In this document: in pieces, positions 6,136-60,753 of the stretch
Position numbering within the stretch: the first letter of the stretch is position 1
Layout: every line of letters starts with the position of its first letter
Assembly (NCBI GenBank): GCA_003971905.1
Contig: RSEE01000073.1
Span: forward strand, 62,001 to 126,000
Length of the DNA: 64,000 nucleotides
Origin: Moniliella sp. 'wahieum'
Lineage: Eukaryota
Direction: 5' to 3'
Made by a program: the position numbers and the translations under genes
Notes under the pieces: model-generated
What the model was told of the DNA's origin: nothing
What the model saw: the letters and a program-made list of their open reading frames with translations, nothing else
Databases searched by the model: none

Positions 6136-7873
6136 ATGGCACCTCTCCCCGCGGGGCCTGCATCTGCGCGTACAGGCGCTTCCCCCCTGTCCCGCGTGGC
6201 CGGGACGAGCGTCCGCTTCGTCTGGGACACGCTCTTGACTTACCGCCACTTTGGTCTGTTTTGCACGGGCTACCTTTTACTCCAGGCGGCTCTGCTCGTG
6301 CTCGTGGTGCTCAAGGTGCCCTACACTGAGATTGACTTTAGTACGTACCTTGAGCAAGCGCAGCGGTACCTCGATGGTGAGCGGGACTATTCCCTGATTG
6401 GGGGCAAGTCCGGTCCGTGCGTGTACCCTGCTGCGCACCTGTACGTGCATGCTCTTCTGGTCCGCTTGTTGCGCGCCGTTTCGGTTGGGTCCGGTGGTAC
6501 GTTCGAGGGGAAGGTGGTCTATCCTTACCTTGCGCCCGTCCTGGCCCGCCTTCCGCAAAATAGCAATTCGCTCGCTCGGTTCGACCAAGGCGCGCCGAGC
6601 CAGGTCGTTGCTCAAATGGTGTTTGCACTGTTATCCTTGGCCACGTCGGCTATTGTGTTGGACTTGTACCGGCTTGCTGCTGAGGCGGTCGAGCAGCGCT
6701 CGGGCCAGCGACAAGGCAGTTCCATTACGCCTCACCAAGGCTGGCGAGGCAAAGTAGGATTCATTTCGCGTCTGGCTTTGCGTCCTGCGTCGCCTCTACC
6801 GCCGCTTGTGCTTGTGTGGCCGTTATTGTCTAAGCGTCTGCATAGTATTTACGTGTTGCGGATGTTCAATGACCCCTGGGCCTTGGGGCTGTTCTACCTT
6901 TCTATCTGGGTCTGGGTGCGTTTCGATGCGACGTCAACGGCATGCATGTTGTTCAGTACCGCGCTCGGAATCAAGATGAACATCTTACTTTTCCTTCCCG
7001 CGTGGGGGATCCTGCTCGAGCAAAAGTTTGGTCTTGCGGCACTTGTTCCCGCCAGTTCGATTGGGTTGGTGCAGGTGTTGCTGGGCTTTCCTTTTCTGCG
7101 TTCGTTTCCGCGCCAGTACCTGGCCACTGCGTTTGACTTTGGGCGGCAGTTCGAGTACCAGTGGACGGTCAATTGGCGTATGGTCCCCGTTGGCATCTTT
7201 CAGTCGTCGTCATTTGGTCGTGGTCTGCTCCTTCTGCACGTGAGCATGCTCACGTGCTTTGTCCTGGTACGATGGACGCCCATCTGGCGCATCGGACTTA
7301 AAAAGTGGATCGTATCCGATCTGTTCCGGCGATCCCCTTCGCTCTACCGCCCCCCACCAGCCGATTGTCAGTCTCTTCTCCCCCCTCCCCCCTCACCTAT
7401 GCCCTATGCTAGCATCCTTCCATGCCCACTTGAGTCCATACTAACCCACCCTTTTTTCTTTTCTTTTCTTCCCTTTTCATTTGCTTTCTTTTTGGTCGCA
7501 CGCATCCGATCCATCCATCCCATCCCATCCAGTCGTCCTGGTGAGCCTGGCGACCGCCAACTTGATCGGGATGACGTGGAGTCGAAGCTTGCACTACCAA
7601 TTTTTCAGTTGGTATGCGCACCAACTGCCGCTGCTGCTGGTTGCGGCCCAATTGCCGTGGTGGAGCAAGGTAATGGTACCAGTTGGTATCACAGTGGGAT
7701 GGCAAACGTTCCCTTCTACCATCGTCTCGTCCAGCAGCTTACTGCTTGCCCACCTCTTTCTGCTCTGGGGTTTGTGGCGCAGCCCTTGGAGCCAATGTCA
7801 GCATCAGCTCGGTCCGGCTCGTACGACTTCAAGTCCAAGTCCGAATCCAAGTTCACGTGCAAGTGCAACGTGA
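6136..7873 (+). CDS. ALG3: Dol-P-Man:Man5GlcNAc2-PP-Dol alpha-1,3-mannosyltransferase; intron ~7367-7532
   Basis: KVPYTEIDFSTY, GPCVYPAAHLY, SKRLHSIYVLRMFND, GIKMNILLF, AFDFGRQFEYQWTVNWR, ANLIGMTWSRSLHYQFFSWY. Confidence 0.95.
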
Positions 7874-15760: not shown

Positions 15761-17283
15761 GGCGGCGGAGGCTCAGCGCGCGGGCGGAGGCGCCGAGCGC
15801 CAGCGGCTTAAGTACAAGTACAAGCAGCGCAGCAGGCGTGCATGCTGGGGGGGGCGACGCGCATCGAGCATCGCCAAGCAGCAGTCGTGGTTGCTGTTTC
15901 CTGGCAGCGCATTCCAAGTCACAACACCAAATACAACACCATGCCAGGCCAGGGCGGTGCTGCTTACGTATGCCGCTGGGCGGCGTAGTGCCTGCGCCCA
16001 GCCGTCGCACACACGCCGCAGTACTCAGCAGTACTCAGTAGTACTCAACCCCCGCGCGCCCATGCCACTTCCAACATGCACAATCCCATCCACAATCCCA
16101 TCCAATCCCATCCACTCCACTCCAGTCCAACCCATCCCACCCACGCCAATCCATTCTCCTGCCTGTTCGGAGCACGCACAACAACAAAAGCGGATGCCGT
16201 CCCACCGTCACTGCTCCTCGCTCCCCTTTTCGCGTCACATGTCACACGTCACACTGCCTCAGCCTCGTATCGGCGCCGTTGCCGCGGCTACTGGCGGCAG
16301 TGGCAAAAACAGAAAACAAGAGCAGACGCACGCCAAGTTCAGCTAGTGACGAGTGCATATCGAATGGCCTGGGAGCGCTGGAGCTTGAGCTTGAGCTTGA
16401 GCATGAAGAATGGCAGCGCTAGCTGAGCTGAGCATATGAGTACTCGTCGAGTGCGCTGCGTACGTGGAGCTAGTGAGCTAGTGACTAGTGACTGATGAAT
16501 GATCGCTGGGTCATGGGAGGGCCAAGCCACAAGGACGCCACGCAAGGGGGGCATTTTCTGTCACACATGCGCAGCCAGGCACCAGGGCTGTGTGCATGGC
16601 GCGGGCGCTCCGGTCCGGTGGTGCCGGCCACGCACGTCGGCGAGCCCCTGTGTTTGGGGTTGGGTTGCCACTTTAATACTTGGTACTTAGTACTTGGTAC
16701 TTAGTACTTACTGCTAGTGCCATAATGCAAACCCACAGTGGAGTGGTGTATTTACCGCGCGGACCTGCCGGTTGTCCCCCTTTTGTTGCCGCCCCGGCCC
16801 CGCCGCAGCCTTGGCTCTCGCTTTGGGCTGGCCAATTGGACTTTGCGCCGCTCGTTGCGGTGGGGAAGGTGGGCGGGGGGTGCGCAGTTTTCCTGTTCTG
16901 GGGTGGTTAACGTACTTGACGTACGTTAATGGTTGTTTGTTGGGCGTGCGTACCGCTGCGCCGTCCACGGGCTGCTGCGAGCGCTCTCCGCCGGACGAAC
17001 GCAGCGGGCAGGCGCGCTAGGCAGGTATAGGAGCGCATAGGAGGCGGATCGGCGGGGCTATCGACTATCTGGGCCGGGGATGGCCTGTGCCATGACATGT
17101 GACGTGTGACGTGACATGTGACAGAGGAGGTGACATGTGATGCATGACAATGTCACTGAGCCAGACGCCATGCGTGACGACATGCACACTTAAGATGTTA
17201 GTGCGCCGCCACATGTGCTCCCACGACACTCTCCTCTGTGTCTGCTCTGCGCCACCACCCTGCCTCCGCTTGTCTTGTGCGCC

Positions 17284-20200
17284 ATGGCCAGCGCGCCGCA
17301 GCTGCTCGACCAAGCCCACCGCCTCGCCTCCCTCCCGACCCCACTGACCGCGACGACACCAACGACCTCGTCCGCCTCGCCGCCTGCGTCGCCCGCCTCC
17401 ACCACGCCCCCCGCACCCCCTTTGGCCTCACCCCCCCCGTCCTTCCAATCGCTCCACTCTGGCTCTCGCTCGCTGCCCCCCCGACGTGTCGTCCAGCCCT
17501 TCCTGTGCCCCCCACGCCCGTCGCGCCCTTGTCCCCCCTCCTCCGCCCCCGCCCCCCCGGCAGCCACTTCCACGAACCCTTCCCGAGCTGTCAGATTATC
17601 CTACCCAGTTCCCCGCGGGCCTCCGTCTGGGCTTGGTGCGCGTCAACCGTGGTGCCCAGACCGGTTGGCTCGTGCCCCCCGCCTTGTCCACCCGTCTACG
17701 CCTGGCCCCGCCTACTTTGAGCCAATGTACGTCGCCCTCCCCTTCCTCTCCCCTGTTGTTGCGGGACCGCAACGCTGGCAAGAACTGACCCAGCGCCGCC
17801 GTAGATGCGAGATCGCCGCCGAGACCTATTCCACGCTTGTCAAGGCTGCAGCGACAGTGACCTGTTGCTTCACCTCGACCAAAGGGGCGAGGTACGAGGA
17901 CAGGCCCGCGCTGCACAGGGTGCTGTGCCAATGGGCTGGGCTCGAGTCGGAGGCACCCCAACAGGCTGCCGTGCAAGTTTTGACTCAACGGTTCCGGCCC
18001 TCGTCGGGGCAGACGCGCGACAATCCACCCAATGTCGCGCGTCACTTCCAAGCCCAGCTTATCGCCCTTACTATCGAGTACAGTATTCGGTGCCAGGAGA
18101 ATGAGCCCAGTGAGGTGGTCAAGGACCTCCAGCGGCGTCGCCAGGCCCTGGCCGACGCAGTGGCAGACAAACCGGACGACAGGCACTTTGGCATGCCAGG
18201 CGGAGGCTACAGGTCCCCTCCACCTCTGCCAAGGGGACCGTGGACGCGATTATGTTGCTTACTGAAACTGCAGACCGGTTGGGCGAGCCAGTGGATTCAG
18301 TCACTGTACGTGACACGTTACTCAAACAGGCTCAAGGGAAGTTTGTCGATGGTTCTATGGACCAGGCGGCTCGCGACCCGTTCTTGCTACCGTTAGCTAC
18401 CTGGCTTCACCGCCTTCACCCTTCTCACCCGCAAATTCTGTTGCTCTTAGCGTGCACGTACTATATGTTGAACGACCTACGTGGCTCGCTGTGGTACAAC
18501 TCGCTGCTGTTGCGTATCAACCCGTCGTATGTTGAGGCGATGAACAACCTCGGTCTCACGCTTCGCTCATTAGGACGTTGGCGCGAGGCGGAAAGTTGGT
18601 GGTGGCGAACGCTGCGCCACCGGGCCTACTGGGACGGGTACGACCACTTGCTCGAGTCGTGTGTGGGCCGCACCAGTGGGTTGAGCCCAAGGTACGAGAG
18701 ATGCCCGAGGACGTACGGGCAGCGCTGCCGGACCTAACGTTGGTGCCGGTACAACCGCTATTGGCACCACATGGGCCTAGACTAGAAGAGGCATTACATC
18801 TTTGTCGGGAGATGGAGAAACGTGCGATGCCATTGAACGTTAAGCCGATCCGTTGTCCTGCCACCTTGGCTCCAGCTCACCTGTGCCGCCTCCAGCACCT
18901 GTACTATGCGATGGGCAATGTGAAATTTGTGCTTCCGCACGAAGGGGTGCAGGAGGCTGTCAAGGACTACGAACGGTCGATCCAAGTGGCCATCTCGTAC
19001 GGCGATGCGGTCTATACCTTATCTGATCTGGTTGTGGCCACGTGCGTAGTATCGATCTTGACATTTGGTGTGCGTGTACCTCCGGAGCGTGCGCATGCGC
19101 TCGCTGAAGCTGTGGGGATCGACCTGGACGATCCTATCCAAGCGGTGTATGTGCACAATGGGGATTACGCCAGTTTGGGCAGCAGCGGGATCTTGGAGCG
19201 GGTGCATGAAGCTGGGGAGCGAGGTGTGCAAGCGTTGCTTGCTGTGGGTGGGGGAAAGTGCCCATTCTCTATGTGCCTCCGCCCAACGCTACTCGTCTGG
19301 CGGAAATCCTGTTCCAACTCACGGAGGGTATCCTTCCTTCGCTCTTCCACCTTTCTCGGGGCACGATCCCCTCTTTACAAGGAGAAGACTGGGGCGATGT
19401 TATCGAGTGTACTGATGACCTTGATCAAGGTGTACCAATCTCCTGTGACGGAGACGCGGATGACACTGGGAGGCATGGAGGCTGGGGTGGGCTTGGTACT
19501 AGCTTGCTTTTATCTGGCCTTTGCGTTGCACCCATCCTCATCTACCTGCAACAACCTCGGTATCCTATTTACGTCTCTTCCAATGAGCATGAGCGTCGTG
19601 AGCGGTACCCGTTCTAGCGCGGTGGAACTGACGGGCCAGCACATGGCGCTGTGGTACTACCGTAGTGGGCTGCTACTTGATTCGAGCGATGCTCATCTGT
19701 ACACGAGCATTGGATCGCTGCTCAAAGACCTTGATCATCTCGGTGAAAGCATCGAGATGTACAAGCGCGCCGTCGACTGTGCACCCAACTACGACGGCGC
19801 TGGCCAACCTAGCCAACGCAATCAAAGACCAAGGTCGGACACAAGACAGCATCGTCTACTACCGTCGAGCTGTGGCGGAGAATCCGGACTTTTCAGCGGC
19901 GGTGTGCGGGTTGGTGAATGCCTTGTTGGCCATCTGTTCCTGGGACGACGTGTACGAAGGTCCGCGTCTGATGGACCGTGTGCAATCCATCTGCGAGCAA
20001 GAGGTGCAAGAGGGGGGGTTGTACGGTGGGGGGATCCTTGCGTCGGACGGAACAAGGGAAGAGTGGGTAGGAAGGATTGCACGTTCACTTGGGTTGGGAC
20101 TGGAAGGTCGCGCAGAATGGAACAAAGTGTTGGCACCGTACTTTACTTCGACACCTGCGCGCGGCGAAGGTTCCTTCCTTCTACGTTTGGTCCAACGTTG

Positions 20201-22210
20201 TGCGCGCGACGGGATGCGGCGATGGTACGTATCTGCCCTCCGGTCTGGCCAGCCGGCCAAGGCAAGCGATAGCGATAGCTGTGCCTATCCGCGTCTGTTG
20301 TTACCGGAGCACCTGGACAGTCCCCCTCTTCCTACCATTCTTCCCTTTCACACGTTCACCTACCCGCTCACGCCGCGTCAAATTCGGATTATCTGTCATC
20401 GCAACGCACTGCGCGTGACCTGGGCCACGCTAACCCAGCCCTGGGTGCCAAAGGAAGTGTACCCCCCTCCGGCGCCACCGGGGCGGCTCAAGGTAGCCTA
20501 CGTCTCTTCGGACTTTGCCAACCACCCTATGGCGCATTTGATGCAAAGTGTGTTTGGCATGCACGATCTGACCCAATTTGAAGTATTTTGTTTTGCCACG
20601 ACGCCCGCGGACGGGTCGCCCTACCGGGAGAAAATCGAGGCTGAGGCCGAACATTTCGAGCAGGTGGCTGGATGGGATAGCGAACGGTTGGTTAATCGGT
20701 TGGTGCAGGAAGGCATCCATATCCTGATCAACCTTCATGGGTACACCAAAGGAGCTCGAAACGAGATCTTTGCTGCTCGACCCTGTCCTGTGCAAGTGGA
20801 GTACATGGGCTTTGCCGGTCCCATGAACAGTAGTTGGACCGACTGGGTTGTGGCGGATCCGATTGTCTGTCCACCTCAAACGACGGGTCCGACGGTAGCG
20901 CGAACCAAGGGGGAGCAAGATCCCGAAGGCGGTGGAAACTGGGTGTACTCAGACCGTTTCATTTACCTACCACCATCGTACTTTGTCACGGACCAAAACA
21001 AGGCTTCCGCGATGACCTTCCGCACGGGTGGGGCAGAGAGAGAAACGACGGTACGAAGCGCGTCGATCACTCTTCCCTCGTTTGCCAGACGATTACTTTA
21101 TCTTTGTCAATGCGAATCAGTTGTGGAAGATGGATCCGGAGCTATTTTCCGTATGGCTGCGCATCCTTAAACGCGTACCTAAATCTATTTTGTGGTTACT
21201 GCACTTCCCACTTGCTGGGAGCCTGCACTTGCGCGCCACAGCACGCCGCTTGGCTGGTGACGAGGTCGCTGCACGAATCGTATTTACCCCTGTGGCACCT
21301 AAGGAGGTGCACGTTGAACGTGGTCGGATCGCCGATTTGTTTCTTGACATGGCTGAGGTACGTCCCCCTTCTCTCCCCCCTTTCCTTTTTCCTTTTCCCT
21401 TTTTCCCTTTTTCCCCTTTCCCTTGACCTTCTGGAGACCCAACTGACATGGCCGCCCAGTGCAATGCGCATACCACTGCCGTCGACATTCTGTGGTCGGG
21501 CACGCCGATGCTCACCTGGCCTAGGCACGAGTACAAAATGTGTTCGGGGTGGGGTGCGTCGTGCGTCGAGGCGACCGGTCGGGGCAGCGAGATGATCGTC
21601 ACTTCTGCCGAGGCTTATGAAGACAGAGCGGTAGAGTTGGCCCAGAGCGTGAGGTACGACTACCTGATGATCAGGGCCACCTGCTTGCTTCACCCGCCGC
21701 CACCTCCACTTCCACCTCCACCTCCACCGACACTTCCACGACATTCCCCTCCACTGACCCTTCCACCGCCACCGACCACCCATCACACCGCCGACTTTGC
21801 AAGCCGACAAGGAGTCGCGCTATGCCGCCAAACCCCCAGCTGAGATGTCAGCGACGGTGGAATTACCGCTCCCAACCGATCCGGAGAGGGAAGGGTTATT
21901 GGATGACAAGTGGATGAGTTCTGTCCGGTTGGGTAGCAGTCCTCCTCGTCCCGCCCAAGCAGCCAGTCGACAGGGACACGGTCAACTAAACGATCTTCGG
22001 CGGCACCTCTATCTGCACCGGGACGAGTCGCGGTTGTTTGATACGCAAGCATGGGTGCGGTCCTTGGAGCGCGGGCTGCAAGAAGCCTGGCGCCGCTGGG
22101 TTGCAGGTACGGACGAGGAGGAAACGTCAGCTGAGTACCGAGCGTTGCCGCCTGATGCGCCCGAGCGGATTAGTCCCCACATTTGGGTCGACCAAGCTCC
22201 GCAGGCGTAA
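17284..22210 (+). CDS. O-GlcNAc transferase-like protein (GT41, TPR repeats); several frameshifts, intron ~21357-21459
   Basis: TPRs (YVEAMNNLGLTLRSLG, ALANLANAIKDQG), ILPFHTFTYPL, LKVAYVSSDFANHPMAHLMQSVFGMHD, HILINLHGYTKGARNEIFAARPCPVQ, NANQLWKMDP, ADLFLD, CNAHTTAVDILWSGTP, LFDTQAWVRSLE. Confidence 0.92.
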
Positions 22211-22744: not shown

Positions 22745-23659
22745 CTAGGTGGACGTGTGGGCCTTGTTGGCCATCTCGACAAAGGCATGGTTAATCAACC
22801 CGAGTCGGTCCACATTGTTGGCTGTGGAAGTGGGTGCCGAGGCAAGGGAAGTAAGCGCGGGTGTGGCCACAGGGGTGGCAGCGGGCACGGTAGAGGACGA
22901 AGCAAGGGCAGCGGCAGCGGCCGAGTCAGCCGAAGCGGCCGAAGCGGCCGAAGCAGCGGAAGCAGCGGAGAGGGACGAAATCGAGGCGGCGGATGCGACG
23001 GAGGCTTCAGACTGGACAGAGGCCTTGGAGGCGGACAAGAGGGAAGCGTGAGACCGCGAGGCAGCTGCTTGCGCCACACTTGCTACCGACGCCTTGGACG
23101 CCGCGACGGACGAAACATGTGCCAGCCAAGAGGAGCGAGCCGAGGCACGAGATTCACTGCTGACAGACAAGACGGATTGAATCGAAGCGGAGGCCTTGGA
23201 TGCCGACGAAGCAGCAGCAGCGGCATCGCCAAACACCCACGTGATGCTAATCTTGCCTGCACCCAGAGGGGAAAAGTAGGAGAACAGAGCCTTGGTCATA
23301 TCCAGATCATCACCGCCGCAGTTACCGCCGCCGGTGGGGCACGCATCTGCAATCGTGGCCGTGTGGGACTTTCCGTTGGCGTAGATGGTGATCGTTTGGC
23401 CACAATACTGCGATTGGGCATTCAAGTTTCCGTACATGGGCTGGGCAAGGGCAACGGTGAAGCCGTCAGGGGAAAGAGATCCCCCACAAGCACCCAGGTC
23501 CCCATTCTGGATCTCGTAAAAGGTACCGTAGGTGTCGTGCTTGCCGTCGCGAGGGAAAAGCTCGTGGGCACGGTTCTGATGCGGTGAACGCTGGGGGCGC
23601 AGCTGGTGCGCCAGAGCAAGTGATGGGAGCAGCGCACCGAGCAGGAGAAGGACGCGCAT
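22745..23659 (-). CDS. Secreted RlpA-like double-psi beta-barrel (expansin/loosenin-like) protein with Ala/Ser-rich tail
   Basis: Signal peptide MRVLLLLGALLPSLALA, GTFYEIQNGDLGACG, CGQTITI, ATIADACPTG, DDLDMTKALF, GKISITWVF. Confidence 0.88.
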   Translation of the reverse strand: MRVLLLLGALLPSLALAHQLRPQRSPHQNRAHELFPRDGKHDTYGTFYEIQNGDLGACGGSLSPDGFTVALAQPMYGNLNAQSQYCGQTITIYANGKSHTATIADACPTGGGNCGGDDLDMTKALFSYFSPLGAGKISITWVFGDAAAAASSASKASASIQSVLSVSSESRASARSSWLAHVSSVAASKASVASVAQAAASRSHASLLSASKASVQSEASVASAASISSLSAASAASAASAASADSAAAAALASSSTVPAATPVATPALTSLASAPTSTANNVDRLGLINHAFVEMANKAHTST

Positions 23660-24454
23660 TGTATAGACGGGAAGAGGGGAGGCGGGGAAACGAAACGAAA
23701 CGAAGGTGGTGGCAGTGGGCGCAGGAGGTGCAGTAGGCAGCACTCCTGCTCTGCTCCGTCAAGCTTGAGCCTTGAGTGCGGCCTGCGCTAGGGAAAGACC
23801 ACAAAGATATAACGCCAACGGAGCAGAGGGCAATACATATTAACCCTATCCGTCGATACCGGGAGACGCGCGTGGGCGCCGCAGAGGAGGGCCACAGGGT
23901 CGTGCCTACCGTATCCACTGGCCTGCGGCTGTTCGCGAGGGCAAGCCACCGCCGCCACAAGCCAGCCACAGGAGGAGGCTACTCGCGCGAGGGACAGGAG
24001 CACCACCGGCCCATCGAGGACACACGCTATGCCCAACCGGATTAAAGCAGCCAACACGGAAGCTGCCCCACCCGTGGACTGTTCTCCACACACCCTCGTT
24101 AACATCAGTGATGCATGATGGCAGAGCGCGCTCACAGTATCGCAAATGGTGATCGCCGAGTACTAGAGTACTGCTGAGGTGACCGGTGACTAGGTGAAGT
24201 AGTGACTGCTATGTAGTGACTGTATGGTCAAGCTTCTACTGACCGGCTAGTGCCTAGTAGTTATGCATACTGATGCTATTGCTAGCGATCTGAGATCGGA
24301 CTTCAAGCTTCAAGCATCATGCATCACATGTCACACCGAAGCGCCCCCCTTCGCCCTTTGCGAGCGTCCGAAAACAGAACTCCTGCATCCTCTGCATTCA
24401 CTTTTTGGAGAGGCATCAAATCATCACATTCAAGTCATCTTACCATCACAGGTA

Positions 24455-27400
24455 TCAGATACTCTCGCCATCCAAAAGCTTGGAAGCGGCGCATCCAAAA
24501 AGACAGGCAACTGTTTTCCTTGTGCAAAAAACGAAACGACACAAAATAGAAGAGATAGGTGAGAGGAACCAAAGTGGTGCAAAAGACGGGTACGGAAGAG
24601 AGAACAAATTGGCAAACGGCGTCACGAGCGGAGCTCCTTCCACTCGGGGTTGTTCACCACGTACGGTACATCGCCCAAGTAGACCCCCTGAACCTCGATC
24701 CTCAAATCGGGAACTTGTGCGGCCTTCTCTACTGCCCAAAGGGCAAGCGCCAGCGTATTCGGTCCCCTCGGGTCGATGATTCCAGGCGGTACCGGGAACG
24801 AAGTTTGCGGCCCCCACCGGGCCAGGCGGCGACCGACTTGCCACCCATTCACATACAGCAACGCTCTCCAGTCCTCCGTTGGCGCCGACGCGTTCCCCTG
24901 GAAGACGAGGGCAAGTGGAAGGTCATGGCCGAGGGGTACATCGAGGGTAAAGATGGTCCGGTAAAAGTTCACCCCGGCGCCAGGCAAGCCTTGTTGTGGG
25001 CTGCCTTCGTCCCAAGCTGAATCATCAAAGCCAGGAAGATGCCAGCCCTGACGCTCGCCATACAACCCTCCTTCGTTGAGGTACATCCGAGTCTTGTCCG
25101 GGAACGATTCGCCCCCCTGGTTGCCAGTCAAGAACCAATCGACCTGCACGCCTCCCAGGTCGTACGCAAGAATGCCACGGGGCTGCTTGGTAGTCTCCAA
25201 GGGCAACCCGTCCGGGTTGGGCGTGATGGATCCTGTCTCTTCATGAGCCGTGTCATCCTGCAAGATGGTCAAGACATTGTGTTCTTTCAGTGCATGTGGG
25301 GGGAACGGCCAAGATCCGCTGGCCCGGTCATACGAGGCATTTCCCTCCAACGAGCCGAGGAACTGTTCGTTAATCCAGATCGATGCTGCAAAGTATTTTC
25401 CGCCCTCGAGGGTGAGGCTGATGCTCTTCGGTAGGGTAGAAGCAAATTCACCCTGCCAGATGAGGTTGCCACTGGTGTGGAAGCCATAGACATCAGCAAA
25501 GAGGACTGTACCATGGGTCGAGACGTTTACTTTGTTAAAGAATGGATTCGGAGTCGAGGTCAAGTTGGCCGCCTTCCAGTTTCCATCGCGTTTAAAAGCC
25601 GGAGTGATCTCAGGAAGCGAATCGCGTACCTTCCACTTCCCCAAAGCAGGCGGAGCCCACTTCTGTGCGGCAGCGGTCGGACCAGGAATTTGGGCAGTCA
25701 GCGCGCCGTAGGAAGTGTGATTGGCCGGAACCGTAGCACCATTGAAGGTGACCTTGTTGATATTCGACGGCACGAAAGCAGTTAGAGGAGCAGAGGCATT
25801 GGACTGGCCTTGGATGACAAGTGTGTCTGAAGTCAGCGTCGCATTAGCAATGTGATAGGGGCCGTGAAGAAGGATGCGGTCACCCGTGCCAACGATGGAG
25901 TCGATCGTCCCTTTGGAGGCTAGGGAAACACTCTGTGCCTTGCGAGCCCAAACACGGTCCGACAAAGCCAACGTCACATCGACACCATCCACTTTGGCAC
26001 CCACAAACACCACTTTCCCCTCGGCCGCCGACCAAGTGAGCGTGGCAATGGCGCCATTGGATTGTACCGTTACCCCGTTGGTTGCAGGTACCGTGAGATT
26101 GTGGCTTCCCTTAATCTGAAGCGTGTTGTTTTTCCCTCCTGCTGTGCTTTGCACCAGCAGCACATCTTTCCCGTCGATCGCTGCCACAAAGCTCACATCA
26201 GCTGTGCTGTAGGTGACCGTGGCATGCGAGGCAGGGAGGGTCGTGTTGACAGGCACGATAACCGAGTCCCTCCCCTCAAGGGTAATCGAGTCATTGACAA
26301 ACCGGAGCGGGTACGTGACCGTGGCGGTAGATGTCGAGTCGTTCTGACGAACGACATACCATTGCGTCCCTGTGCGTGAAGGCGAACCCAGATGGGAAAT
26401 ATGGGCACCCTCACTGGTAGTGTAGCGGTCAAGAACAGTAGATGTGGCAAAGTCTGGGAAAGAGGTAAAGAAGGAGCCCAACAGACCATAGTCTCCCAAC
26501 TTATCCCGCTTGATCCGCCGTTCATCCAGGGCCGCACCGTAATCGTAGCTAGTGTACACCAAGCCACCGAACGCGACATTGCCAAAGTTGGTTCCGCCAA
26601 AGCCCATGTAGCGCGAGATCATCTTGACTCCCTGTGCAAGTGCATCCTTATCGAAAGTTTCCACAAAATCGGGGGAAAGCAGCTGGGAACATGCCTCATA
26701 CCCCACTCCGCCATACGGATCGTAGCTCCCTCCCTGGAACTCAGGGATGAACTGAGGGTTGTGAGGCGCAATCCGGCTCAAGTTATAGTAGGTATCCGCT
26801 TTGACGGGGTTCCATTTCGTTGGGTTTCCGCAGTCGAACAATTGTCTGTTTTGTAATGGTACAACAGGGTCAGTATCTTTTCTTTAACAAGGTCGAGCCC
26901 AAATGACGTACGGGTATGAGTCTTGCCCCCAGATGTCGAGCTTGGTGTCATTGGCGTAATCCACGCCCCCCCCAATCTGGTTAAAGGTCGTAGGGACCAC
27001 GATTCCGTTGGCATGGTAGGTATCGATAAGCTGATCAAAGTAAGCCTGCATCGGTCCTGACTGCTGGAACTCGTTCTCAACCTGCACCGCAATCACCGTC
27101 CCTCCTGTCGGGTCAATCTCGCCGTTGTGCACCTTCAACTGGTAGGGGGCTGTGGCTTTGGCCACCGCCGAAATAAAGGGAGTCCAAGCATCCTGCCACA
27201 CTTTGGATCCTGTGCGCAGCTGGGTGTCCAGGTTCTGCACCCACCCAGGCATGCCCCCTCCGTTGACCTCGGCGTTGATGTAGGGCCCAGGCCGGACAAT
27301 CACAAAGAGTCCGACGTCTTTGGCCAACTGAAGGAATGCCGACAGATCGTTCACACCTTCAAGTGCGAGGCTCTTGGGGTCAGCGCTTGGCTGGCTCAGA

Positions 27401-29035
27401 CCCCAGAAAGTGTACATCGACACAGTGTTGAACCCAGCCGCCTTGAGTTTCTCCAGCGCATCCCGCCACAGTGCGGGCACTGGCAGACGGAACGGATGGA
27501 ACTCGAAAGAGTTCAACACAATGTCATGCCCGGCAATCTTGATGTTAGTATTGTCCCAAGTGACAGCGGGCGCGTCTTGCAGGGGCAGGCTCCACGCTGG
27601 AGCTGGAGCAAGCAAAAGTGCTACTAAGGGTAGCAGATGCTTAAGGAGCATGGTTGGGAGGCTATTAGCAGCGGTGTTGGCGTTGATGTATGAGAGGGAC
27701 TGTTGCAAAGACGATGATATTTATTCATCTGATGCTGAGCACTGGGCAATGCACTCCTTCATCGATCTTGTTTTTGCAGCGGGTGAAAAGGCAAAGGATG
27801 CCCGCGATCCCACAAGATGACGGTATGTTGCAGAGATGGGCTCACAGGAACAGAGTCTCAGGGAGGTGAGGCCGGTGAGGGGGCAGCCACGGGGCAGCCA
27901 CACGGTGGTTGGGATCGCCTTAACAGACAACTTTATGCACGGCCCCAGGAACGTGCCAAGGAATGAACGTGTGGCGTGTGGAGACCGAGCACCCCACATA
28001 CTCTCCCAGAATATACCCAAACCTTTTCGTCCGAGTTGTGTGGGGCGAGAGTAGGGGAGAGCTAAAGCTTCCACATGGGCGCGCACTGTTCTGGCTGCAT
28101 GTGATGCACCGGCAACCCAACACTGCTTTGGTGCAATTAGAAGCATGTCCCACCTACAGTAGGACCATGGTAGTAGGCAGGAGGCAGGGCGCGCAGTAAG
28201 CGAGCAGGCGCGAACAGACTTCTACAAGCGAAGGCCGAAGGAAGGCAAGAACAGAGGCGGTGCAAAGCAAACCATAATATGGCGCCCACAATACCATACG
28301 TAAACCCTGCCCGGCTAAAATACACTACGCAGCGAAAAGGCCGAACGCACCGTGTGGATCGAATAACAATATGCGGCAGCGGTGGTTCGTGCGCAGGTCA
28401 AGTATTGGGAGCGGGGAGAACAGGTGTGGGGCCCCAGGATTATTGGGATCCCCTCACCCGGCCATACCAGGCCATGTGGTCCATCATGCATCATGCACAC
28501 CATGATGACACCATTCGCTGTGCGCAGCCAAAAGCTGTCAGCCGGTGTGGGTCGCCATTGAAGAGGCTATATACAACACGTCATTGCGCCGCTGCAACGA
28601 GGAACAGAGCATCACACACACATTCTCCTCTCTCTCTATAACATGCGGAGAAAGAGGAGAGGCGACTTTCCCACAGCGGAAATGCATGCATACCAACTAA
28701 TGAGCGCGAACGGGTGGCAAGTAAAACGAAAGAGGGGACTAGCGATGGTGAGAGAGGCAAAGGGAGGGCGCACCTTCGCTGACACTCACCGAAACCGACG
28801 AAACGATGTGTGAGAATAAGACGAAGCCTTTTGTGCTGTCAACGCCTTGTCACGTGTCACACGCAACACTCTGACCTGTCTGCGCTGACGCGATCCATTG
28901 TCCACAGTCATATCCACATTGGGCTTGTACTTTGCTCAGAAAAGGAGGCGCAGAGGTTAGTTTGACCTTCAAGTCTTGGGCGGGGGAGAAGACTGGTTTT
29001 GTACCGTCAATCTATACTGTGGCCACTGCTGTATT
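24455..29035. repeat. Tandem segmental duplication unit A (GH35 gene plus upstream region)
   Basis: Matches 32901-37120. CDS near-identical; flanking anchors match, e.g. agatactc (24458/32904), ctcacccggccataccag (28453/36819), ttagtttga..ggggag.agactg (~28957-28996/~37017-37057). Confidence 0.85.
24622..27651 (-). CDS. Secreted GH35 beta-galactosidase, copy A (intact); intron 26846-26911
   Basis: Signal peptide; FEFHPFRLPVPALWRD, RPGPYINAEVNGGG, acid/base QVENEF, nucleophile PEFQGG, YTSYDYGA, LNEGGLYGERQGWHLPG, LYVNGWQVG, GPQTSFPVPPGI. Confidence 0.95.
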
Positions 29036-29836
29036 CACATATCATTCGCAGAGCTTAAAAGACAGGGACAAAGAAACGCTGCACCGACCACAGGCCCGCT
29101 CGATTGATGCGATCATTTCTCGTATAGTCATAAGACTTTAATTTTCAGGTAAGAGGCCCACTTGGCTTCTCCTTCTCCATCCAGGCTCTGGTGACCTTCG
29201 GCAACTTCCCTGCCCGCACAGCATCCACAATATATCTCTCAGATTTCTCAAGGTGATCCTGTTGGTCCACTTGTCGGGCTGGTTGCGCTTGGAAATGTCT
29301 TCTCCTGGACGGAAATAGTAACCGTACGTGCGCTTGAACAATTCCATATCGCCGTTGCACTCTCGATAGAACCTGACCAACGCCTTTTTGGCATCAGGAA
29401 GAAGCGTAAAGTAGGCATCGTCGCCCTCCAAGCTCCACCACTGCCAGCGCCATTCGTCTTCGAGTGCATCTTCGAGAGTGGCAGGGACCACATACCCTTC
29501 AGGAATCGTCGTCGTCCGCTCCTTCTCCGCTTCATCCGCCTTTTTGTTGTTCTTGGTTTTTCCCAGCTCGGGGACTGGCCGTCCGGGAACAAAGGCCTTC
29601 CTGAATCTCTTCTTCAACCACGTTTCCGGGCGGGCCAAATCCACTTCAGCTGGGCGTTTCTGAGCATACCTTCTCGGTTGTCGCGTCATGATAAGACGCT
29701 GTGTAGAAACGGACTTGGCTCAGGTAAAGCACGATCAACAATGTATGGGGGGGGGGGCAACTGCAAGACCAGGGTGATAAGCAGGAGCATGTGGTGCAAT
29801 ACCGGTAGGTGTGAGAGTCGGATTATAGGTGGGATT

Positions 29837-30080
29837 TGGAGCAAGAGTCGGAGCAAGAGTCGGAGCAAAAGTCGGAGCAAAAGGAGGAGCAAGAGTCGGA
29901 GCAACGGCAGGAGCCGGTGGTGCAGCAGGAGCTGGTGATGCAGCAGGAGCTGGTGGTGCAGCAGGAGCTGGTGATGCAGCAGGAGCTGGTGGTGCAGCAG
30001 GAGCTGGTGGTGCAGCAGGAGCTGGTGGTGCAGTAGGAGCGGGTGATGCAGCAGGAGCCGGTGGTGCAGCAGGAGCTGGC
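29837..30080 (-). repeat. Coding tandem repeats in the YR linker: 18-bp unit (PAAPPA/PAASPA) plus a 12-bp unit
   Basis: ggtgcagcaggagctggt-type units repeated about 9 times; ggagcaagagtc-type units about 5 times. Confidence 0.9.
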
Positions 30081-30371
30081 AAAGTCGGACCCAGCAGTAC
30101 GGGGGCGGGTGTAGGAAAGGGTGCAGGAATCAGAACAAATGGAGCAGCCGGAAGGACAGGTGTGATTACGGAGCAGTACCAGTCCCCATCTCTGGAGCAC
30201 CTCCTTGATCGCCTTCAACAAGCACTTCTGCATCCTGAGCACGCATCACCTCGGGCTCATCTTCCGGCCCATCTTGAACAATCGCCGCCTCTGGAGCATC
30301 ATCTGGTGGGTTCCGAACAGTATCAACAGCAATTGGAACTGGGGTGCCGGGAGGTGGGTTCGTGGTCACGA

Positions 30372-30612
30372 CAGGTTGCTGGGCAACAACAGGGCTGAGC
30401 AACAACAGGCTGCTGAGCAACAACAGGCTGCTGAGCAACAACAGGCTGCTGAGCAACGACGGGTTGTTGGGTAACGATAGGTTGTTGCGTAACAACAGGT
30501 TGCTGGGCAACGACAGGTTGGGCAGCGACAGGTTGTTGGGCAACGACAGGCTGCTGAGCAACGAGAGGCTGCTGGGCAACAACAGGTTGCTGAGCAACGA
30601 CCCCCAGCAATT
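30372..30612 (-). repeat. Coding 18-bp tandem repeat (QQPVVA) in the YR linker
   Basis: Translation VVAQQPVVAQQPLVAQQP... about 12-13 units. Confidence 0.9.
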
Positions 30613-32571
30613 GATGAATCTGCTTGGACAAAATGACATGTTGCTCAGTCAAGAGGTCGACCTGCTGGTCAACCGGCGGAGATCCTCGCGGTCATCGTTT
30701 CCTTCGATTTCCATGTCAGCGAAGGTTCGTTCATGCCTCACCCGCTTGTTAAGAAGGCAGCGAATCAATGCCGTGTCCTGACAATTCTCTGACCAGCCCC
30801 CCCCATTGCACCTCCACCAACGACTTAGGTCGTTCACCATAATCCTGTAAGGAAACGAGTCAGTAAGGCCGCTGCGAAGTAGACCAATCGCGGCGTCGTA
30901 GGTATGCGTACGGCAGCATACACGTAAGCATCTTGGGCTCCCCCGCGTCGGAAACAATATGTTGAGTAGGACGGTGTGCATTGTGCAAACCGAGGAATAC
31001 ACTTCAGTGTCTCCTTGATCCATCTGTTGACAGTGTTGTAGGCGATTTGATCTTTTGGACGGTTCGGGACCCCCAAAGGACCAAGGGCGGGAAAGACATG
31101 GTCATCTGGATCCATGCGGCACCTTTTACACAGAGGAAGCCCTGCCATTCAGTGAGCGCCTTCACAGCGCTGCACTCGGGACGAGACCCTTCCAGATCCC
31201 ACAGTCTATATTGCGTCACTTGATTAGCGCCATGTTGGTTGGTTTTCCGAAACGAGTTACTAGAGCGAGTTAGTATGGTGTCAAAGCGCCCGAAGGGAAT
31301 GAGCACGTACGTGACGGCGATGCCATGTAAGTATCTTTGCACTTCATTTGGTCGATGGGGCTTCGGTTTTTGGATCCGTTCGATATCCTTCCAGGTCAAT
31401 CTCAATACTTCGCTTAATCGAGCCCACAGACGATATGCGAGGATGCTGACCGTCTTGAGAGAAGTGGTTTCGTCACGTATGGATCATATGGATCATCCAA
31501 CCCTTCCGTTGGCGCACCGTAGATACCTTGATCCAGATGTTGGAGGAGTATCTTGAGATCAGGGTACAGCATAGCCTCGGACGAATGCGAATAGTGAGCG
31601 CGACGACGCAGCCGGTTGTAATATATTAACCAGGTCATCAATGAGGCAGGTGCGCGCAGGATTACCCGTGCATGTATCAGGGCGGAACTGACACAGACGG
31701 TTGGAGTCCTCAAATTTGGCCTGGAAGAACCAGAGAAGAGCAGCGCGCATCGAGGCGATGGTGTGGTGCGCCTGAGGTTTCACAAGCACATGGAACTGAA
31801 ACCACAGCATTGTCACTTCCGCCGTGCGTTCACTCTTCGTCCAGGTCGACCAAGCGGGTTCTTTACCAAGTCCATCCCCATGATCCACGCAATGAACGAT
31901 TTGACCCTCCGCTTGTACGTGCCCACTGTATTCTGTGTGAGTGATGCCCTGGCAACGTCGGTCCTGGTCGTCGTATAGTCGACGTCCAGGTCCGATTTGA
32001 TCCAGAGACGTACAACCTCGTTGTCCTGGGTCGTGTCGTAAGCTTGGGGAGCAAGGCCAAAACTTCTCTTCAATGACCTGTTTCGGAATTGTGCGGCACC
32101 ATTTGGTTCCAACGTTCCCGATCGTACTCCAGGTCCGGATCGTCTGGAACATCCACGTCGGCATCCTCTTCGTTATCGGCTTCGGTGAGGGCAGCGAGAA
32201 ACAGGGCAGTGTCCTCTGGGTGCTCTGGGACCTCGTCAGGGGCCAAGTCGTACATTTCGTCCTCGTATTCAAACGCTGGCTCGCCAAGCGGCTGAGGGTT
32301 GGCAGCAGAACGCGTCGTCCGACCGGGACCACAGCCCGACCCCTGCCCCTGCCCCTTGCTCCGCCCCTGCCTCTGCCTCTGCCTCTTCCCCGGCCCCTCC
32401 CTTGAGGCAGCGCGCGTGCAGCATGAACGGGGTCTCTTGTCGTGGCAACGGGCATGTTGGTGCTGATACGAGGAGGGGGTGGTGGGAACGCGTACAAGGA
32501 ATGCGGGAGAGTCCGATTCGATGATCTCGATGATTACACGCTGGATACGGAATTCCTTGAAACGATGACCG

Positions 32572-32607
32572 GAATTTGAAATTGTTACTGATAACAATTT
32601 CAAATTC
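32572..32607. other. Perfect inverted repeat GAATTTGAAATTGTTA-CTGA-TAACAATTTCAAATTC; candidate recombinase binding or crossover site
   Basis: 16-bp arms are exact reverse complements, AT-rich in GC-rich DNA, ~120 bp upstream of the YR ATG (32455). Confidence 0.75.
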
Positions 32608-32900
32608 GGATAAAACAGCGCCAAAAACGGCAAAGGACTTGGACAAGAAATAAGGCGGGCAGGGACGAGAATGGAAAAGGTGGGGCAAAGGATCCCCACT
32701 GAGTACTGAGTACTGGTCGAGGATGCTTACTGTTGGCTGACCCTTTTTGGTAACCCCCTCATGTTTAAGCCCATCGCGGAAGCAAACGAAGCAAGCGAAG
32801 ACTGTGAAGGCTGCGAAGGTACTAAGAAATAGGACTTCCCCCCGTTTTTCATGATCATTCGCCCGTGCACGTCCTCAGTCCGTTCTCCGCCCCCTTCAGA

Positions 32901-35900
32901 ATTAGATACTCATCATGCAAATATGCAGGGCGCATCCAAGAAAAGCCACTATTTTTCGTTTGGGGAAAAGAAAAAGGGACACAGAGTGGACACCAGCGAT
33001 GGCAAGCAGGGATGGCAAAAAAAGTAACGAAAAAGATGGGCAGGGGAGAAAGCTGGAATGGCAAATGACCACGAAGAGCGGAGCTCCTTCCACCGGGGTT
33101 GTTCACCACGTACGGTACATCGCCCAAGTAGACCCCTAACCTCGATCCTCAAATCGGGAACTTGTGCGGCCTCTCTACTGCCCAAAGGGCAAGCGCCAGC
33201 GTATTCGGTCCCTCGGGTCGTGATTCCAGCGGAGGCGGTAGGGAACGAAGTTTGTGCCCCCACCGGGCCAGGCGGCGACACAACTTGCCACCCATTCACA
33301 TACAGCAACGCTCTCCAGTCCTGTTGGTGCCGACGCGTTCCCTGGAAGACGAGAGCAAGAGGAAGATCATGGCGAGGGGTACATCGAGGGTAAAAGTTGC
33401 GATAAAAGTTCACCCCGGCGCCAGGCAAGCCTTGTTGTGGGCTGCCTTCGTCCCAAGCTGAATCATCAAAGCCAGGAAGATGCCAGCCTTGACGCTACCA
33501 TACAACCCTCTTCGTTGAGGGTACATCCGAGTCTTGTCCGGAACGATTCGCCCCCTGGTTGCCATCAAGAACCAATCAATCTGCACGCCTCCCAGATCGT
33601 ACGCAAAGAATACCACGGGTTCCTTGCCGTTTCAAAAGGCATCCGTTCGGGTTTGGGCGAGATGAATTCTGCCTGTTCATGGGCAGTGTCACCCTGCAAG
33701 ATGGTCAAGACATTGTGTTCCTTCAGTGCATGTGGGGGAAACTTCCAGGATCCGCTGGCCCGGTCATACGAGACATTGCCCTCCAACGAGCCGAGGAACT
33801 GGTCGTTAATCCAGACCGAGGCTGCAAAGTATTTTCCGCCCTCAAGGGTGAGGCTGATGCTCTTCGGTTGGGTAGAAGCAAATTCACCCTGCCAGATGAG
33901 GTTGCCACTGGTATGGAAGCCATAGGCATCAGCAAAGAGGACTGTACCATGGGTGGAGACGTTTATTTTGTTAAAGAAAGGATTCGGAGTCGAGGTCAAG
34001 TTGGCCGCCTTCCAGTTTCCATCGCGTTTAAAAGCTGGAGTGATCTCAGGAAGCGAATCGCGTACCTTCCACTTCCCCAAAGCAGGCGGAGCCCACTTCT
34101 GTGCAGCAGCGGCCGGACTAGGAATTTGGGCAGTGAGCGCGCCGTACGCGATGCGGTTGGCCGGAACCGTAGCGCCATTGAAGGTGACCTTGTTGATATT
34201 CGACGGAACAAAAGCAGTGAGGGGAGCAGAGGCATTGGACTGGCCTTGGATGACAAGTGTGTCTGAGGTCAGCGTCGCATTAGCAATGTGATAGGGGCCG
34301 TGAAGAAGGATGCGGTCGCCCGTGCCAACGATGGAGTCGATCGTCCCCTTGGAAGCTAGGGAAACACTCTGTGCCTTGCGAGCCCAAGCACGGTCCGACA
34401 AGGCCAACGTCACATCGACGCCATCCACTTTGGCACCCACATAGACCACTTTCCCCGCGACAGCCGACCAAGTGAGGGTGGCAATGGCCCCATTGGATTG
34501 TACCGTTACCCCGTTGGTTGCAGGGACCGTGACATTGGGGCGGCCTTGAATTTGCAGCGTGTTGGTTTTCCCTCCTGCTGTGCTCTGCACCAGCACCACA
34601 TCTTTCCCGTCGATCGCTGCCACAAAGCTCACATCAGCTGTGCTGTAGGTGACCGTGGCATGCGAGGCAGGGAGGGTCGTGTTGACAGGCAGCATAACAG
34701 AGTCCCTCCCCTCAAGTGTAATCGTGTCATTGACAAACCCGAGCGGGTACGAGACCGTAGCGGTAGACGTCGAGTCGTTCTGACGAACGACATACCATTG
34801 CGTCCCTGTGCGTGAAGGCGCGCCCAGATGGGAAATATGGGCACCCTCGCTGGTGGTGTAGCGGTCGAGGACGGTAGATGTAGCAAAGTCTGGGAAAGAG
34901 GTAAAGAAGGAGCCCAACAGACCATAGTCTCCCAACTTGTCCCGCTTTATTCTTCGCTCATCCAGGGCCGCGCCGTAATCGTAGCTAGTGTACACCAAGC
35001 CACCGAACGCAACATTGCCAAAATTGGTTCCACCAAAGCCCATGTAGCGCGAGATCATCTTAACTCCCTGTGCAAGTGCATCCTTATCGAAAGTTTCCAC
35101 AAAATCGGGGGAAAGCAGTTGGGAACATGCCTCATACCCCACTCCGCCATACGGATCGTAGCTCCCTCCCTGGAACTCAGGGATGAACTGAGGGTTGTGA
35201 GGCGCAATCCGGCTCAAGTTATAGTAGGCATCCGCTTTGACGGGGTTCCATTTCGTTGGGTTTCCACAGTCGAATCGTTGTCTGTTTTGTAATGGTACAG
35301 GGTTAGTATCGTTTCTTTATCACGGTCGAGCACAATTCACGTACGGGTACGTGTCTTGCCCCCAAATGTCGAGCTTGGTGTCATTGGCGTAATCCACCCC
35401 CCTTCCTACCTGGTTAAAGGTGGTGGGCACAACGATTCCATTGGCATGGTAGGTATCGATCAGCTGGTCAAAGTAAGCCTGCATCGGTCCTGACTGCTCG
35501 AACTCGTTCTCGATCTGCACCGCAATCACCGTCCCTCTCGCAGGATCAATCTCGCCGTTGTGCACCTTCAACTGGTAGGGCGCTGTGGCCTTGGCCACCG
35601 CCGAAATAAAGGGAGTCCAAGCATCCTGCCACACTTTGGATCCGGTACGCAGCTGGGTGTCCAGGTTCTGCACCCACCCCGGCATGCCCCCTCCGTTGAC
35701 CTCGGCATTGATGTAAGGCCCAGGCCGGACAATCACAAAGAGTCCCACGTCTTTGGCCAACTGAAGGAATGCCGACAGATCGTTCACGCCTTCGAGTGCG
35801 AGGCTCTTGGGATCCGCGCTTGGCTGGCTCAGACCCCAGAAAGTGTACATCGACACAGTGTTGAACCCAGCCGCCTTGAGTTTCTCCAGCGCATCCCGCC

Positions 35901-37120
35901 ACAGAGCAGGTACTGGCAGACGGAACGGATGGAACTCGAAAGCGTTCAGCACAATGTCATGCCCGGCAATCTTGAGGTTGTTATTGTCCCAAGTGACAGC
36001 GGGCGCGTCTTGCAGGGGCAGGCTCCACGCTGGAATTGGAGGGAGCAAAACTGCTAATAAGGGTAGCAGATACTTGAGGAGCATATCTGCAAGTGTGCCA
36101 GCAGCGGGGTTGGCGTTGAGAAGTATGAGAGGGGCTGCTGCGAAGACGATGGTATTTACCCATCTGACGCCGAACAGGCAATGCCCTCCGTCGATCTTGT
36201 TGGAGTGGATGAGAAAAGGATGTGGGTGCCCGATCCCCACAACCGATAACCGAGAACATGTTGAAGAGATTGGCTCCCAGGAACAGGGCTGGCCGCAAGC
36301 CATAATCTCGATCATCGATCATCGATAACCGAAGGACAGGGACAGAGACGCGGTGCAATAAGTAAACCCTACCCTTCTCCAATATACTCACCGAAAATAA
36401 GGCCGATTGCATCGCGTGGACCGAATATCGCCATGTGGCAGGGGGGTGGCCCGAGCACAGGATTAGGGGGGCGGCGAAAGCAGGCGTGGCATCAAGGTGG
36501 CTGAATCCCGATGCCAAGCCAAACAGCAATCAAGGTAATCAAGAACTGGAGGTCGACAGACAATAGGGATTGATTGCTGGTGGGCAATAGTAGAGAGTAG
36601 CGGAGAGGGAGGAGGAGGAGGGAGGGGATGAGAGGGAGGACTATAAGCTACGACTGCCAAAACTTCAAAAGGAGGCGGATTGCCTCAGACTTCCGCCCCG
36701 GCGGGGTTAGCGGAGCTGCTGGGAGGAAGTGGTTGGGAGCGCCAGAGTCCGACTATGTTCTTGGCAGACTGCACTAGTGTTTCCTCAACAGTGCCCCCCA
36801 GATTCTTAGGAACCCCTCCTCACCCGGCCATACCAGACAGGCCAGGTAGTCGACAGTGATGACACGATGACGTGTCCGCATCCACTGGCATCTCGACTTT
36901 GGGTGTAACTCACATCTATATCGACTTGGATGGGCATGTTTTCATTGCGGTGTGGCTGGATATACCCGCGGGAATAATCGGATGGAAAAAAGGACTCGAC
37001 TGGGTGCGGAGAGTAATTAGTTTGAGCTCCCCATGATTTGGGCAGGGGAGCAGACTGTTTTCCGACGACCAAATGGCGTTTTGCACCGTCAATCAAACTA
37101 TACTGACTGCGGCTGTACTT
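32901..37120. repeat. Tandem segmental duplication unit B (GH35 gene plus upstream region)
   Basis: Direct-orientation paralog of 24455-29035. Confidence 0.85.
33070..36084 (-). CDS. Secreted GH35 beta-galactosidase, copy B; intron ~35282-35344; 3' ~550 bp broken by many indels (error or pseudogenisation)
   Basis: Same motifs as copy A (QIENEF, PEFQGG, YTSYDYGA); open to ~33620, then fragmented; stop position approximate. Confidence 0.88.
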
Positions 37121-37414
37121 TGATCTCCTCTTCCCGTCGCAGCTAGGCGCCATTACCCGTTGCAGTGGAAATGTGGGACAGCAATCTCTGAAGATGTGCG
37201 ATCTGAGTACACATTCATCAAATTATCAAAGGCACGTCTATAATACCTATACGTAGGAGACAAGGTTTCTGTCGCCTCTCCGGGGATCACTGTCTTTTTT
37301 GTGTGGTCAACATGTCAATTGTAGAGGAGATGGTCCAAGGTCTTGTGGAAGGGAGACCGAGATGAGTCACATATGTGACATAGAGCATGGATCATTGGCG
37401 TTTCCACCACTGGA

Positions 37415-38514
<1,100 letters not shown>

Positions 38515-60457: not shown

Positions 60458-60753
60458 GCTATGATGAGCAAGAAATAGTATGGTTCCACTGATATTGTGG
60501 TAGAGTAGAGCAGTGTCCCTTCGTGTTGCGTCTAGCATCCCTCACTGATTCACTTCCCTTGTGATATACGTAAACTGAGGCCTGACCAACTCCTCTCTAG
60601 ATCGCCCAGTAACATCAATTTTGGGGGCATTGAACCTGATGAGACAAGAGGCATGATGCATGAGAACTACATGAGACGGCAGCGTATGTAAAGATCTCGA
60701 ATCTCAAATTAACGTCGGGGTGCCACACTGCATTGACCTTCTGTCGATCCTCT

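Follow-up and report, generated by a model that had tools for sequence, protein, structure and literature searches.

A tyrosine-recombinase-like gene at the joint of an old tandem GH35 duplication in Moniliella: a tentative case for later insertion of a Crypton-like element

Did a mobile element multiply the host gene beside it, or did it settle between two copies that were already there? The question is raised by a locus of Moniliella sp. 'wahieum' (GenBank assembly GCA_003971905.1, contig RSEE01000073.1, positions 62,001 to 126,000; "the window" denotes this whole stretch of 64,000 nucleotides (nt), in which all positions are counted from its first letter). Two copies of a gene for a GH35 beta-galactosidase stand here as direct repeats on either side of a single gene that resembles tyrosine recombinases. 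An earlier note on this DNA had proposed a recombinase-linked amplification module with the GH35 gene as its cargo, an idea that we regard as an improbable possibility and not as a finding. The reading that we favour, tentatively, puts the duplication first: the GH35 gene and its flanks would have been duplicated in tandem long ago, and a Crypton-like element of ~3.8 kb, or a gene derived from one, would have arrived later and independently, most likely inserting itself between the two units by site-specific integration. The presumed element is bracketed by a 9-bp repeat, is single-copy in the window and would have carried no GH35 cargo.

The duplication itself is well delimited. In a comparison of the window with itself (blastn), one large direct repeat was obtained, 24626-27853 against 33076-36286, with 91.5% identity over 3249 columns; the repeat families D2-D14 in the repeat listing of the window, spaced 8433-8449 nt, are pieces of the same duplication. 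More sensitive alignment extends the homology into the non-coding flanks, which are indel-rich and ~70% identical. On the left, 24454-24700 resembles 32901-33147 (71.5% over 260 columns, E-value 1.8e-33), and local alignment places the limit of homology at 24443/32893. On the right the homology is patchy (28296-28429 against 36358-36489; 28432-28520 against 36796-36887); the outermost block, 28948-29051 against 37006-37142, reaches a score of 70, equalled by none of 300 shuffles and by 1 of 277 random pairs of real window segments. Delimited by homology, unit 1 thus comprises 24443-29051 (minus strand), with the 3' flank, the gene and ~1.4 kb of upstream DNA, and unit 2 comprises 32893-37142 (minus strand). 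These alignment limits (blastn and local alignment) agree to within ~20 nt with the breakpoints of the earlier note, at ~24455, ~29035, ~32900 and ~37120, and self-comparison and Pfam matches bear out the geometry it had described, namely two direct GH35 units around one recombinase segment. Nothing besides this segment lies between the units, and both GH35 copies and the recombinase-like gene have the same orientation (minus strand). With just these two GH35 copies in the window, nothing points to ongoing amplification.

Both copies are GH35 beta-galactosidases by their domains: the Glyco_hydro_35 catalytic domain, BetaGal domains 2 and 3 and the all-beta domains were all found (PF01301, PF10435, PF13363 and PF13364 in Pfam), and the match to the PDB structure 1TG7 has an E-value of 6.5e-102. 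Copy 1 (24622-27651, minus strand) is intact, with an ATG at 27651, a 66-nt intron at 26846-26911 bearing the signals GTACGT, TACTGAC and CAG, 987 codons and a stop at 24622-24624; it has a signal-peptide-like start and aligns in a single frame with fungal GH35 proteins and with 1TG7. Copy 2 (33076-36084, minus strand) has a start (ATG 36084) and an intron (35282-35344) that are the counterparts of those of copy 1, stays in frame for ~790 codons and meets its first stop at codon 818. In a large protein collection the nearest GH35 proteins, a Logan protein and one of Ceraceosorus, are 48% identical, followed by those of Pseudozyma flocculosa, Thecaphora and Meira. The GH35 of this Moniliella genome groups with Ustilaginomycotina, and judged by this protein the host resembles a member of that group that has no closely related sequenced species. 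Since the nearest proteins are just 48% identical, both copies are, as far as this collection indicates, lineage-specific.

How old is the duplication? Over the first 785 codons, 98.75 synonymous and 51.25 non-synonymous changes separate the two copies, corresponding to a synonymous divergence (dS) of 0.197, a non-synonymous divergence (dN) of 0.029 and a ratio of 0.15; their introns are ~11% different. By these measures, purifying selection has acted on both copies for the greater part of their history; the duplication is old, not recent, as judged from the dS of 0.20, the dN/dS of 0.15 and the ~70% identity of the flanks. Gene conversion was considered as the sole cause of the contrast between coding sequence and flanks and was rejected, given the sharp fall of identity at the stop codon and the dN/dS of 0.15; it may nevertheless contribute.

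The 3' end of copy 2 has a peculiarity of its own. Between 33094 and 33620 it differs from copy 1 by 19 small indels, 16 of them deletions in copy 2; most are 1-nt deletions, about half lie in homopolymers, and the frame is lost in the last domain. Across 204 gap-free codons of this indel-rich end, the proportions of synonymous (pS) and non-synonymous (pN) differences are 0.16 and 0.052 (pN/pS 0.32), with ~5% substitutions. Numerous 1-nt deletions together with few substitutions are unlike ordinary decay, and the cluster suggests either very recent decay or a local assembly error. The latter invites the thought that the entire layout is an artefact, the GH35 copies or the intervening segment having been misjoined. 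Besides the 19 indels in ~530 nt with their excess of 1-nt deletions, about half of them in homopolymers, frame breaks in the recombinase-like gene and a frameshifted carboxylesterase elsewhere in the window are in line with such an origin. Assembly errors, however, do not give a pattern of 98.75 synonymous and 51.25 non-synonymous differences with distinct flanks and introns, and every junction is continuous unique sequence; we consider a misjoined locus very improbable.

What, then, lies between the units? The middle is a single-copy segment, Y, at 29050-32862 (minus strand; 3813 nt including one repeat copy), separated from unit 2 by a spacer at 32863-32892; blastn with word size 7 and tblastx reveal no second copy of it in the 64-kb window. 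Its recombinase-like gene has a stop at 29138-29140, leaving 87 nt to unit 1, and its putative ATG at 32455 is separated from unit 2 by 438 nt, so that the position of the gene and the uniqueness of the sequence between the copies in the window are as previously claimed. At the two edges of the segment, the 9-bp word ATCATTCGC is found as a direct repeat, at 29041-29049 and at 32854-32862 (plus strand), and nowhere else on either strand of the 64 kb. Among random window pairs a 9-mer is shared in ~2% of cases (26 of 1257 pairs of the same spacing; 455 of 19881 random pairs). The boundary pairs that bracket the recombinase together with GH35 (a-b, a-d and c-d) have no common word of at least 7 nt, and no inverted repeat links the two ends of segment Y. 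Because the repeat surrounds the recombinase segment and no repeat surrounds recombinase plus GH35, the apparent element is the recombinase segment alone and the GH35 gene does not appear to be its cargo, contrary to what the earlier note had suggested. The 9-bp repeat, we infer, delimits an inserted element.

A second sequence feature of the segment, already mentioned in the earlier note, is a perfect palindrome at 32572-32607, with 16-nt arms and a 4-nt loop. It precedes the putative ATG by 117 nt, is the longest perfect palindrome of the window and may alternatively be divided into two 14-nt arms with an asymmetric 8-nt spacer between them. The window has 4 palindromes with arms of at least 10 nt, compared with 0-1 in each of 5 shuffles. 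In PMC3212892, tyrosine-recombinase sites are described as inverted repeats of 11-13 bp that enclose 6-8 bp; the palindrome could be a candidate recombination site or, equally, an operator of the gene. The three other perfect palindromes, all with 11-nt arms, are found at 7236-7257, 18012-18043 and 63711-63738. A search of metagenome contigs with the palindrome arm returned two loci with 13-nt arms (L001 5001-5036 and L002 1480-1515); they are parts of larger AT-rich hairpins that have no similarity to the segment, and were dismissed as chance matches.

Is the middle gene a tyrosine recombinase? Two open reading frames (ORFs) of its catalytic region (30662-31483, minus strand), 31004-31483 and 30834-31148, weakly match the integrase family phrog_1 of PHROG in collinear fashion, at profile positions 289-315 (E-value 0.099) and 358-404 (E-value 0.16). 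The neighbours of ORF 31004-31483 in the ESM Atlas include clusters with PF00589 (Phage_integrase), PF12012 (DUF3504) and PF16787 (NDC10_II), with scores of 0.92-0.94; DUF3504 and NDC10_II are Crypton-derived according to the relevant part of PMC3212892. Read by eye, the minus strand encodes motifs in the canonical order R, K, (H/Y)xxR, W: the box I Arg in ARLSEV (31406-31423), a Lys in RKTNQ (31235-31249), Y-C-F-R-R-G-G-A-Q (30933-30959) and G-G-G-W-S-E (30787-30804). Taken together, the PHROG matches, the ESM Atlas neighbours and the motif order, each weak but all in agreement, make it very probable that the gene is of recombinase ancestry, and the identity that the earlier note had assigned to it probably holds in the sense of descent.

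Its activity is another matter. The catalytic tetrad of tyrosine recombinases is R-H-R-Y (PMC3212892, in the section concerned). By eye, the first and the second Arg are present in the gene, and the His position of H-x-x-R is taken by a Tyr. No nucleophile Tyr was seen in at least 60 residues past the G-G-G-W motif of the deduced protein; a Cys stands where, on inspection by eye, we presume the nucleophile to belong. We predict that the gene probably no longer encodes an active recombinase. A model of ORF 31004-31483 that AlphaFold computed from the single sequence, with no alignment, has a mean pLDDT (predicted local distance difference test) of 35, too low for use, and a search for relatives in metagenome contigs gave 150 pattern matches, none of which was confirmed.

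The structure of the gene is that of an interrupted and in places irregular reading frame. The N-terminal part (31559-32455, minus strand) comprises an RG-rich start, an acidic stretch and a core-binding-like region. Four candidate introns with canonical GT, branch and AG signals each restore the frame, in accordance with the intron-containing Crypton type that the earlier note had invoked; all are on the minus strand, the first in the N-terminal part (31866-31796, 71 nt, GTAAAG...CAG) and the others in the catalytic region (31310-31260, 51 nt, GTACGT...TACTAAC...TAG; 30921-30845, 77 nt, GTATGC...ACTGAC...CAG; 30741-30662, 80 nt, GTGAGG...CTGAC...CAG). Frame breaks near 31478 and 31140 do not accommodate an intron; each lies at a short homopolymer and, by eye, is cured by one added base. 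Additional frame changes occur near 32300, 32075, 31600 and 30400, and the frame breaks of the gene may be assembly errors. Downstream of the catalytic region, 18-nt tandem repeats encode (P-V-V-A-Q-Q)n at 30375-30654 (minus strand; the frame change near 30400 falls within them), followed by an acidic tail up to a stop at 30166 (minus strand). Next come Pro/Ala-rich tandem repeats of 12 and 18 nt at 29826-30130 (minus strand), whose reading frame is doubtful because the GC content at third codon positions is 0.21 as against 0.64-0.77 in neighbouring genes. The 3' end of the segment is an open stretch of 193 codons (29138-29719, minus strand), the final exon or else a small gene of its own; no family was found for it in Pfam (E<=10) or NCBIfam and no usable match in the ESM Atlas.

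The relative ages of the parts bear most directly on how the layout arose. A 9-mer pair that had diverged as long as the flanks (~30%) would be intact in ~4% of cases (0.7^9, our arithmetic). The repeat is perfect at 9 of 9 positions and the palindrome at 16 of 16, whereas the flanks are ~70% identical; both features therefore look younger than the duplication, which favours a later insertion. The same age difference speaks against an amplification made by the recombinase, the claim at the heart of the earlier note, as do the old duplication (dS 0.20, flanks ~70%), the catalytic Tyr that by eye is missing and the presence of only two copies.

Several observations weigh against a later, independent insertion. 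Segment Y lies 0-30 nt from the joint of the two units, a position that an insertion at random in the ~1.6 kb spacer would hit in ~2-4% of cases (our arithmetic); such closeness favours a link between element and duplication, or a segment that predates the duplication. The 9-bp repeat has a chance expectation of ~2%, and several word lengths were inspected. As to the recombinase kinship, the PHROG matches are individually insignificant; the ORFs of the gene have no Pfam match at E<=10, PF00589 included, and none in NCBIfam; and the two catalytic ORFs retrieved nothing relevant among PDB sequences. Word-indexed protein searches gave 268 candidates for ORF 31004-31483, 0 of them at E<=0.001, and 174 for ORF 30834-31148, 0 at E<=10, and an exhaustive search with the non-catalytic ORF 31813-32172 (119 residues, in the N-terminal part) returned one spurious match to a repeat protein. 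The missing Tyr and the His-to-Tyr exchange depend on our own reading frame and on a general consensus. With indel errors of the assembly being possible, neither 'broken' nor 'intact' is to be trusted as a description of the gene.

The closeness to the joint would find an explanation if a recombinase element made the duplication. Two routes may be envisaged: (a) unequal exchange, homologous or recombinase-mediated, between two copies of the element that had inserted to the left and to the right of GH35 on sister chromatids or homologues, yielding GH35-element-GH35 and the reciprocal deletion; and (b) integration of a circle of element plus GH35 at the resident copy, the route of the earlier note. 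An element within 0-30 nt of the joint with nothing else between the units, and three genes that point in one direction, speak for such an origin, and transposon-induced duplication by maize Ac/Ds is known to place the transposon where two tandem direct copies meet. The palindrome, too, has an arm-spacer-arm design that can be read as 14+8+14, comparable to the recombinase sites outlined in part of PMC3212892. However, the direct repeat surrounds the element alone, and the flanks, at ~70% identity, look older than both the repeat and the palindrome. None of the boundaries has a second palindrome or half-site (up to 3 mismatches). In an empty-site comparison, homology to the outer right boundary does not carry on past the right repeat: 491 of 500 shuffles reached the score of 14. 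The seemingly absent catalytic Tyr, the mere two copies and the age of the event point the same way. That a recombinase element made the duplication by route (a) or (b) is unlikely in our estimate; that a Crypton-like element did so, by unequal exchange between two flanking insertions or by re-integration of an element-plus-gene circle, we hold to be quite improbable, and to the same low degree, jointly with it, that an attachment core was left at the joint and that the lox-like 14+8+14 palindrome is the recombination site.

A position at the joint would require no coincidence at all if the middle gene were a resident, domesticated Crypton-derived gene for a DNA-binding regulator, the block of GH35 and this gene having been duplicated and the outer recombinase-like copy lost or, in a variant, GH35 having been copied across the resident gene. 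In either case the repeat would be a chance occurrence and the palindrome an operator belonging to the gene itself. The catalytic Tyr that seems to be absent and the Tyr in the His position (both by eye) would suit such a gene, as would the Q-rich and P/A-rich low-complexity tracts, which are typical of regulators, and loss of the catalytic tetrad is a hallmark of domesticated Cryptons in the part of PMC3212892 that deals with them. The introns, moreover, share the signals GTACGT...TACTAAC/TACTGAC...YAG with the intron of the host GH35 gene. On the other hand, the 9-bp repeat exactly at both edges would have to be due to chance (~2%), several frame breaks leave no room for an intron, protein and metagenome-contig searches found no orthologue, and two rearrangements are required. 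A domesticated resident is accordingly a rather doubtful alternative to the later insertion that we prefer.

The neighbourhood of the duplication consists of host-type genes. On the left, a gene at 22745-23758 (minus strand) encodes a secreted small-barrel protein with a Ser/Ala-rich tail; the label expansin/DPBB-like was given to it by eye only, and it has no Pfam match at E<=0.01. On the right follows an unbroken GAPDH gene of 336 codons at 37415-38425 (minus strand; PF00044, PF02800). Further off, a carboxylesterase (PF00135; ORFs 61889-62710 and 60618-62048, minus strand) changes frame in a conserved motif at 61960-61990; with ~26 nt between the profile pieces, where an intron does not fit, this is an assembly indel or a pseudogene. 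A gene with TPR and Glyco_transf_41 domains, O-GlcNAc-transferase-like, extends over 17194-21840 (plus strand) in several overlapping frames, which may reflect introns or frame errors; its profile is split among separate ORFs into the pieces 19-213, 363-451 and 453-516.

The locus is chiefly of value as a clearly bounded case of a Crypton-like gene that has diverged very far, with candidate ends and a candidate binding site; it also cautions that, in this assembly, local indel errors can look like the decay of a gene. If it were true that the segment caused the duplication, small Crypton-type elements could amplify host genes, here that of a secreted glycosidase; cargo-linked genome change would extend past Starships into an Ustilaginomycotina-like lineage, and recombinase-linked amplification of a eukaryotic host gene would be brought about by an element family without detectable sequence relatives.

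Among known systems, alternative transposition of maize Ac/Ds generates tandem direct duplications with the transposon at the joint. The order duplicate-element-duplicate, with the element at the joint, is shared by the Moniliella locus, but the Ac/Ds enzyme belongs to the DDE cut-and-paste class. In the collection of papers that was searched, none combines 'Crypton', 'tyrosine recombinase' and 'tandem duplication'.

With Starships the locus has in common a fungal tyrosine recombinase, here a presumed derivative of one, beside host-type genes. It differs in size (3.8 kb, not tens to hundreds of kb) and in that the GH35 gene lies outside the repeat-bounded segment, no repeat bracketing recombinase plus GH35. 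The captain domain DUF3435 (PF11917) gave no Pfam match at E<=10, and the gene is therefore not a Starship captain, in keeping with the distinction from DUF3435 Starships drawn by the earlier note. Starships are established in Pezizomycotina (PMC12134995, in the part concerned with their distribution), whereas the GH35 of this genome groups with Ustilaginomycotina.

Domesticated Crypton genes, such as Gcr1, Msn1/Hot1, Cbf2/Ndc10 and the DUF3504 genes, resemble the middle gene in a core that departs from the full R-H-R-Y and in low-complexity regions, as far as they are characterized in part of PMC3212892, and clusters with NDC10_II and DUF3504 are among its neighbours in the ESM Atlas. Unlike them, the middle gene has no Pfam match to NDC10_II, DUF3504 or GCR1_C and no orthologues were found; its frame breaks could mean decay, not use.

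The closest comparison is with the Cryptons themselves. These have short terminal direct repeats (4-6 bp) and no terminal inverted repeats, according to the description in part of Kojima and Jurka (2011, PMC3212892). Segment Y departs from this description in its repeat of 9 bp instead of 4-6 bp and in its internal perfect palindrome, a feature that does not figure in the Crypton passage of that source. It also differs in lacking a detectable sequence relative and, by eye, a nucleophile Tyr; GCR1_C, which would mark a CryptonF, was absent from ORF 29138-29719 and the other pieces (Pfam, E<=10). What it shares with CryptonF and CryptonS elements, as portrayed in the same part of PMC3212892, is a single intron-containing, tyrosine-recombinase-like gene, a length of a few kb and a fungal host, together with the absence of terminal inverted repeats and, if the 9-bp repeat marks its ends, short direct repeats at both ends. 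Segment Y probably works like, and descends from, a Crypton.

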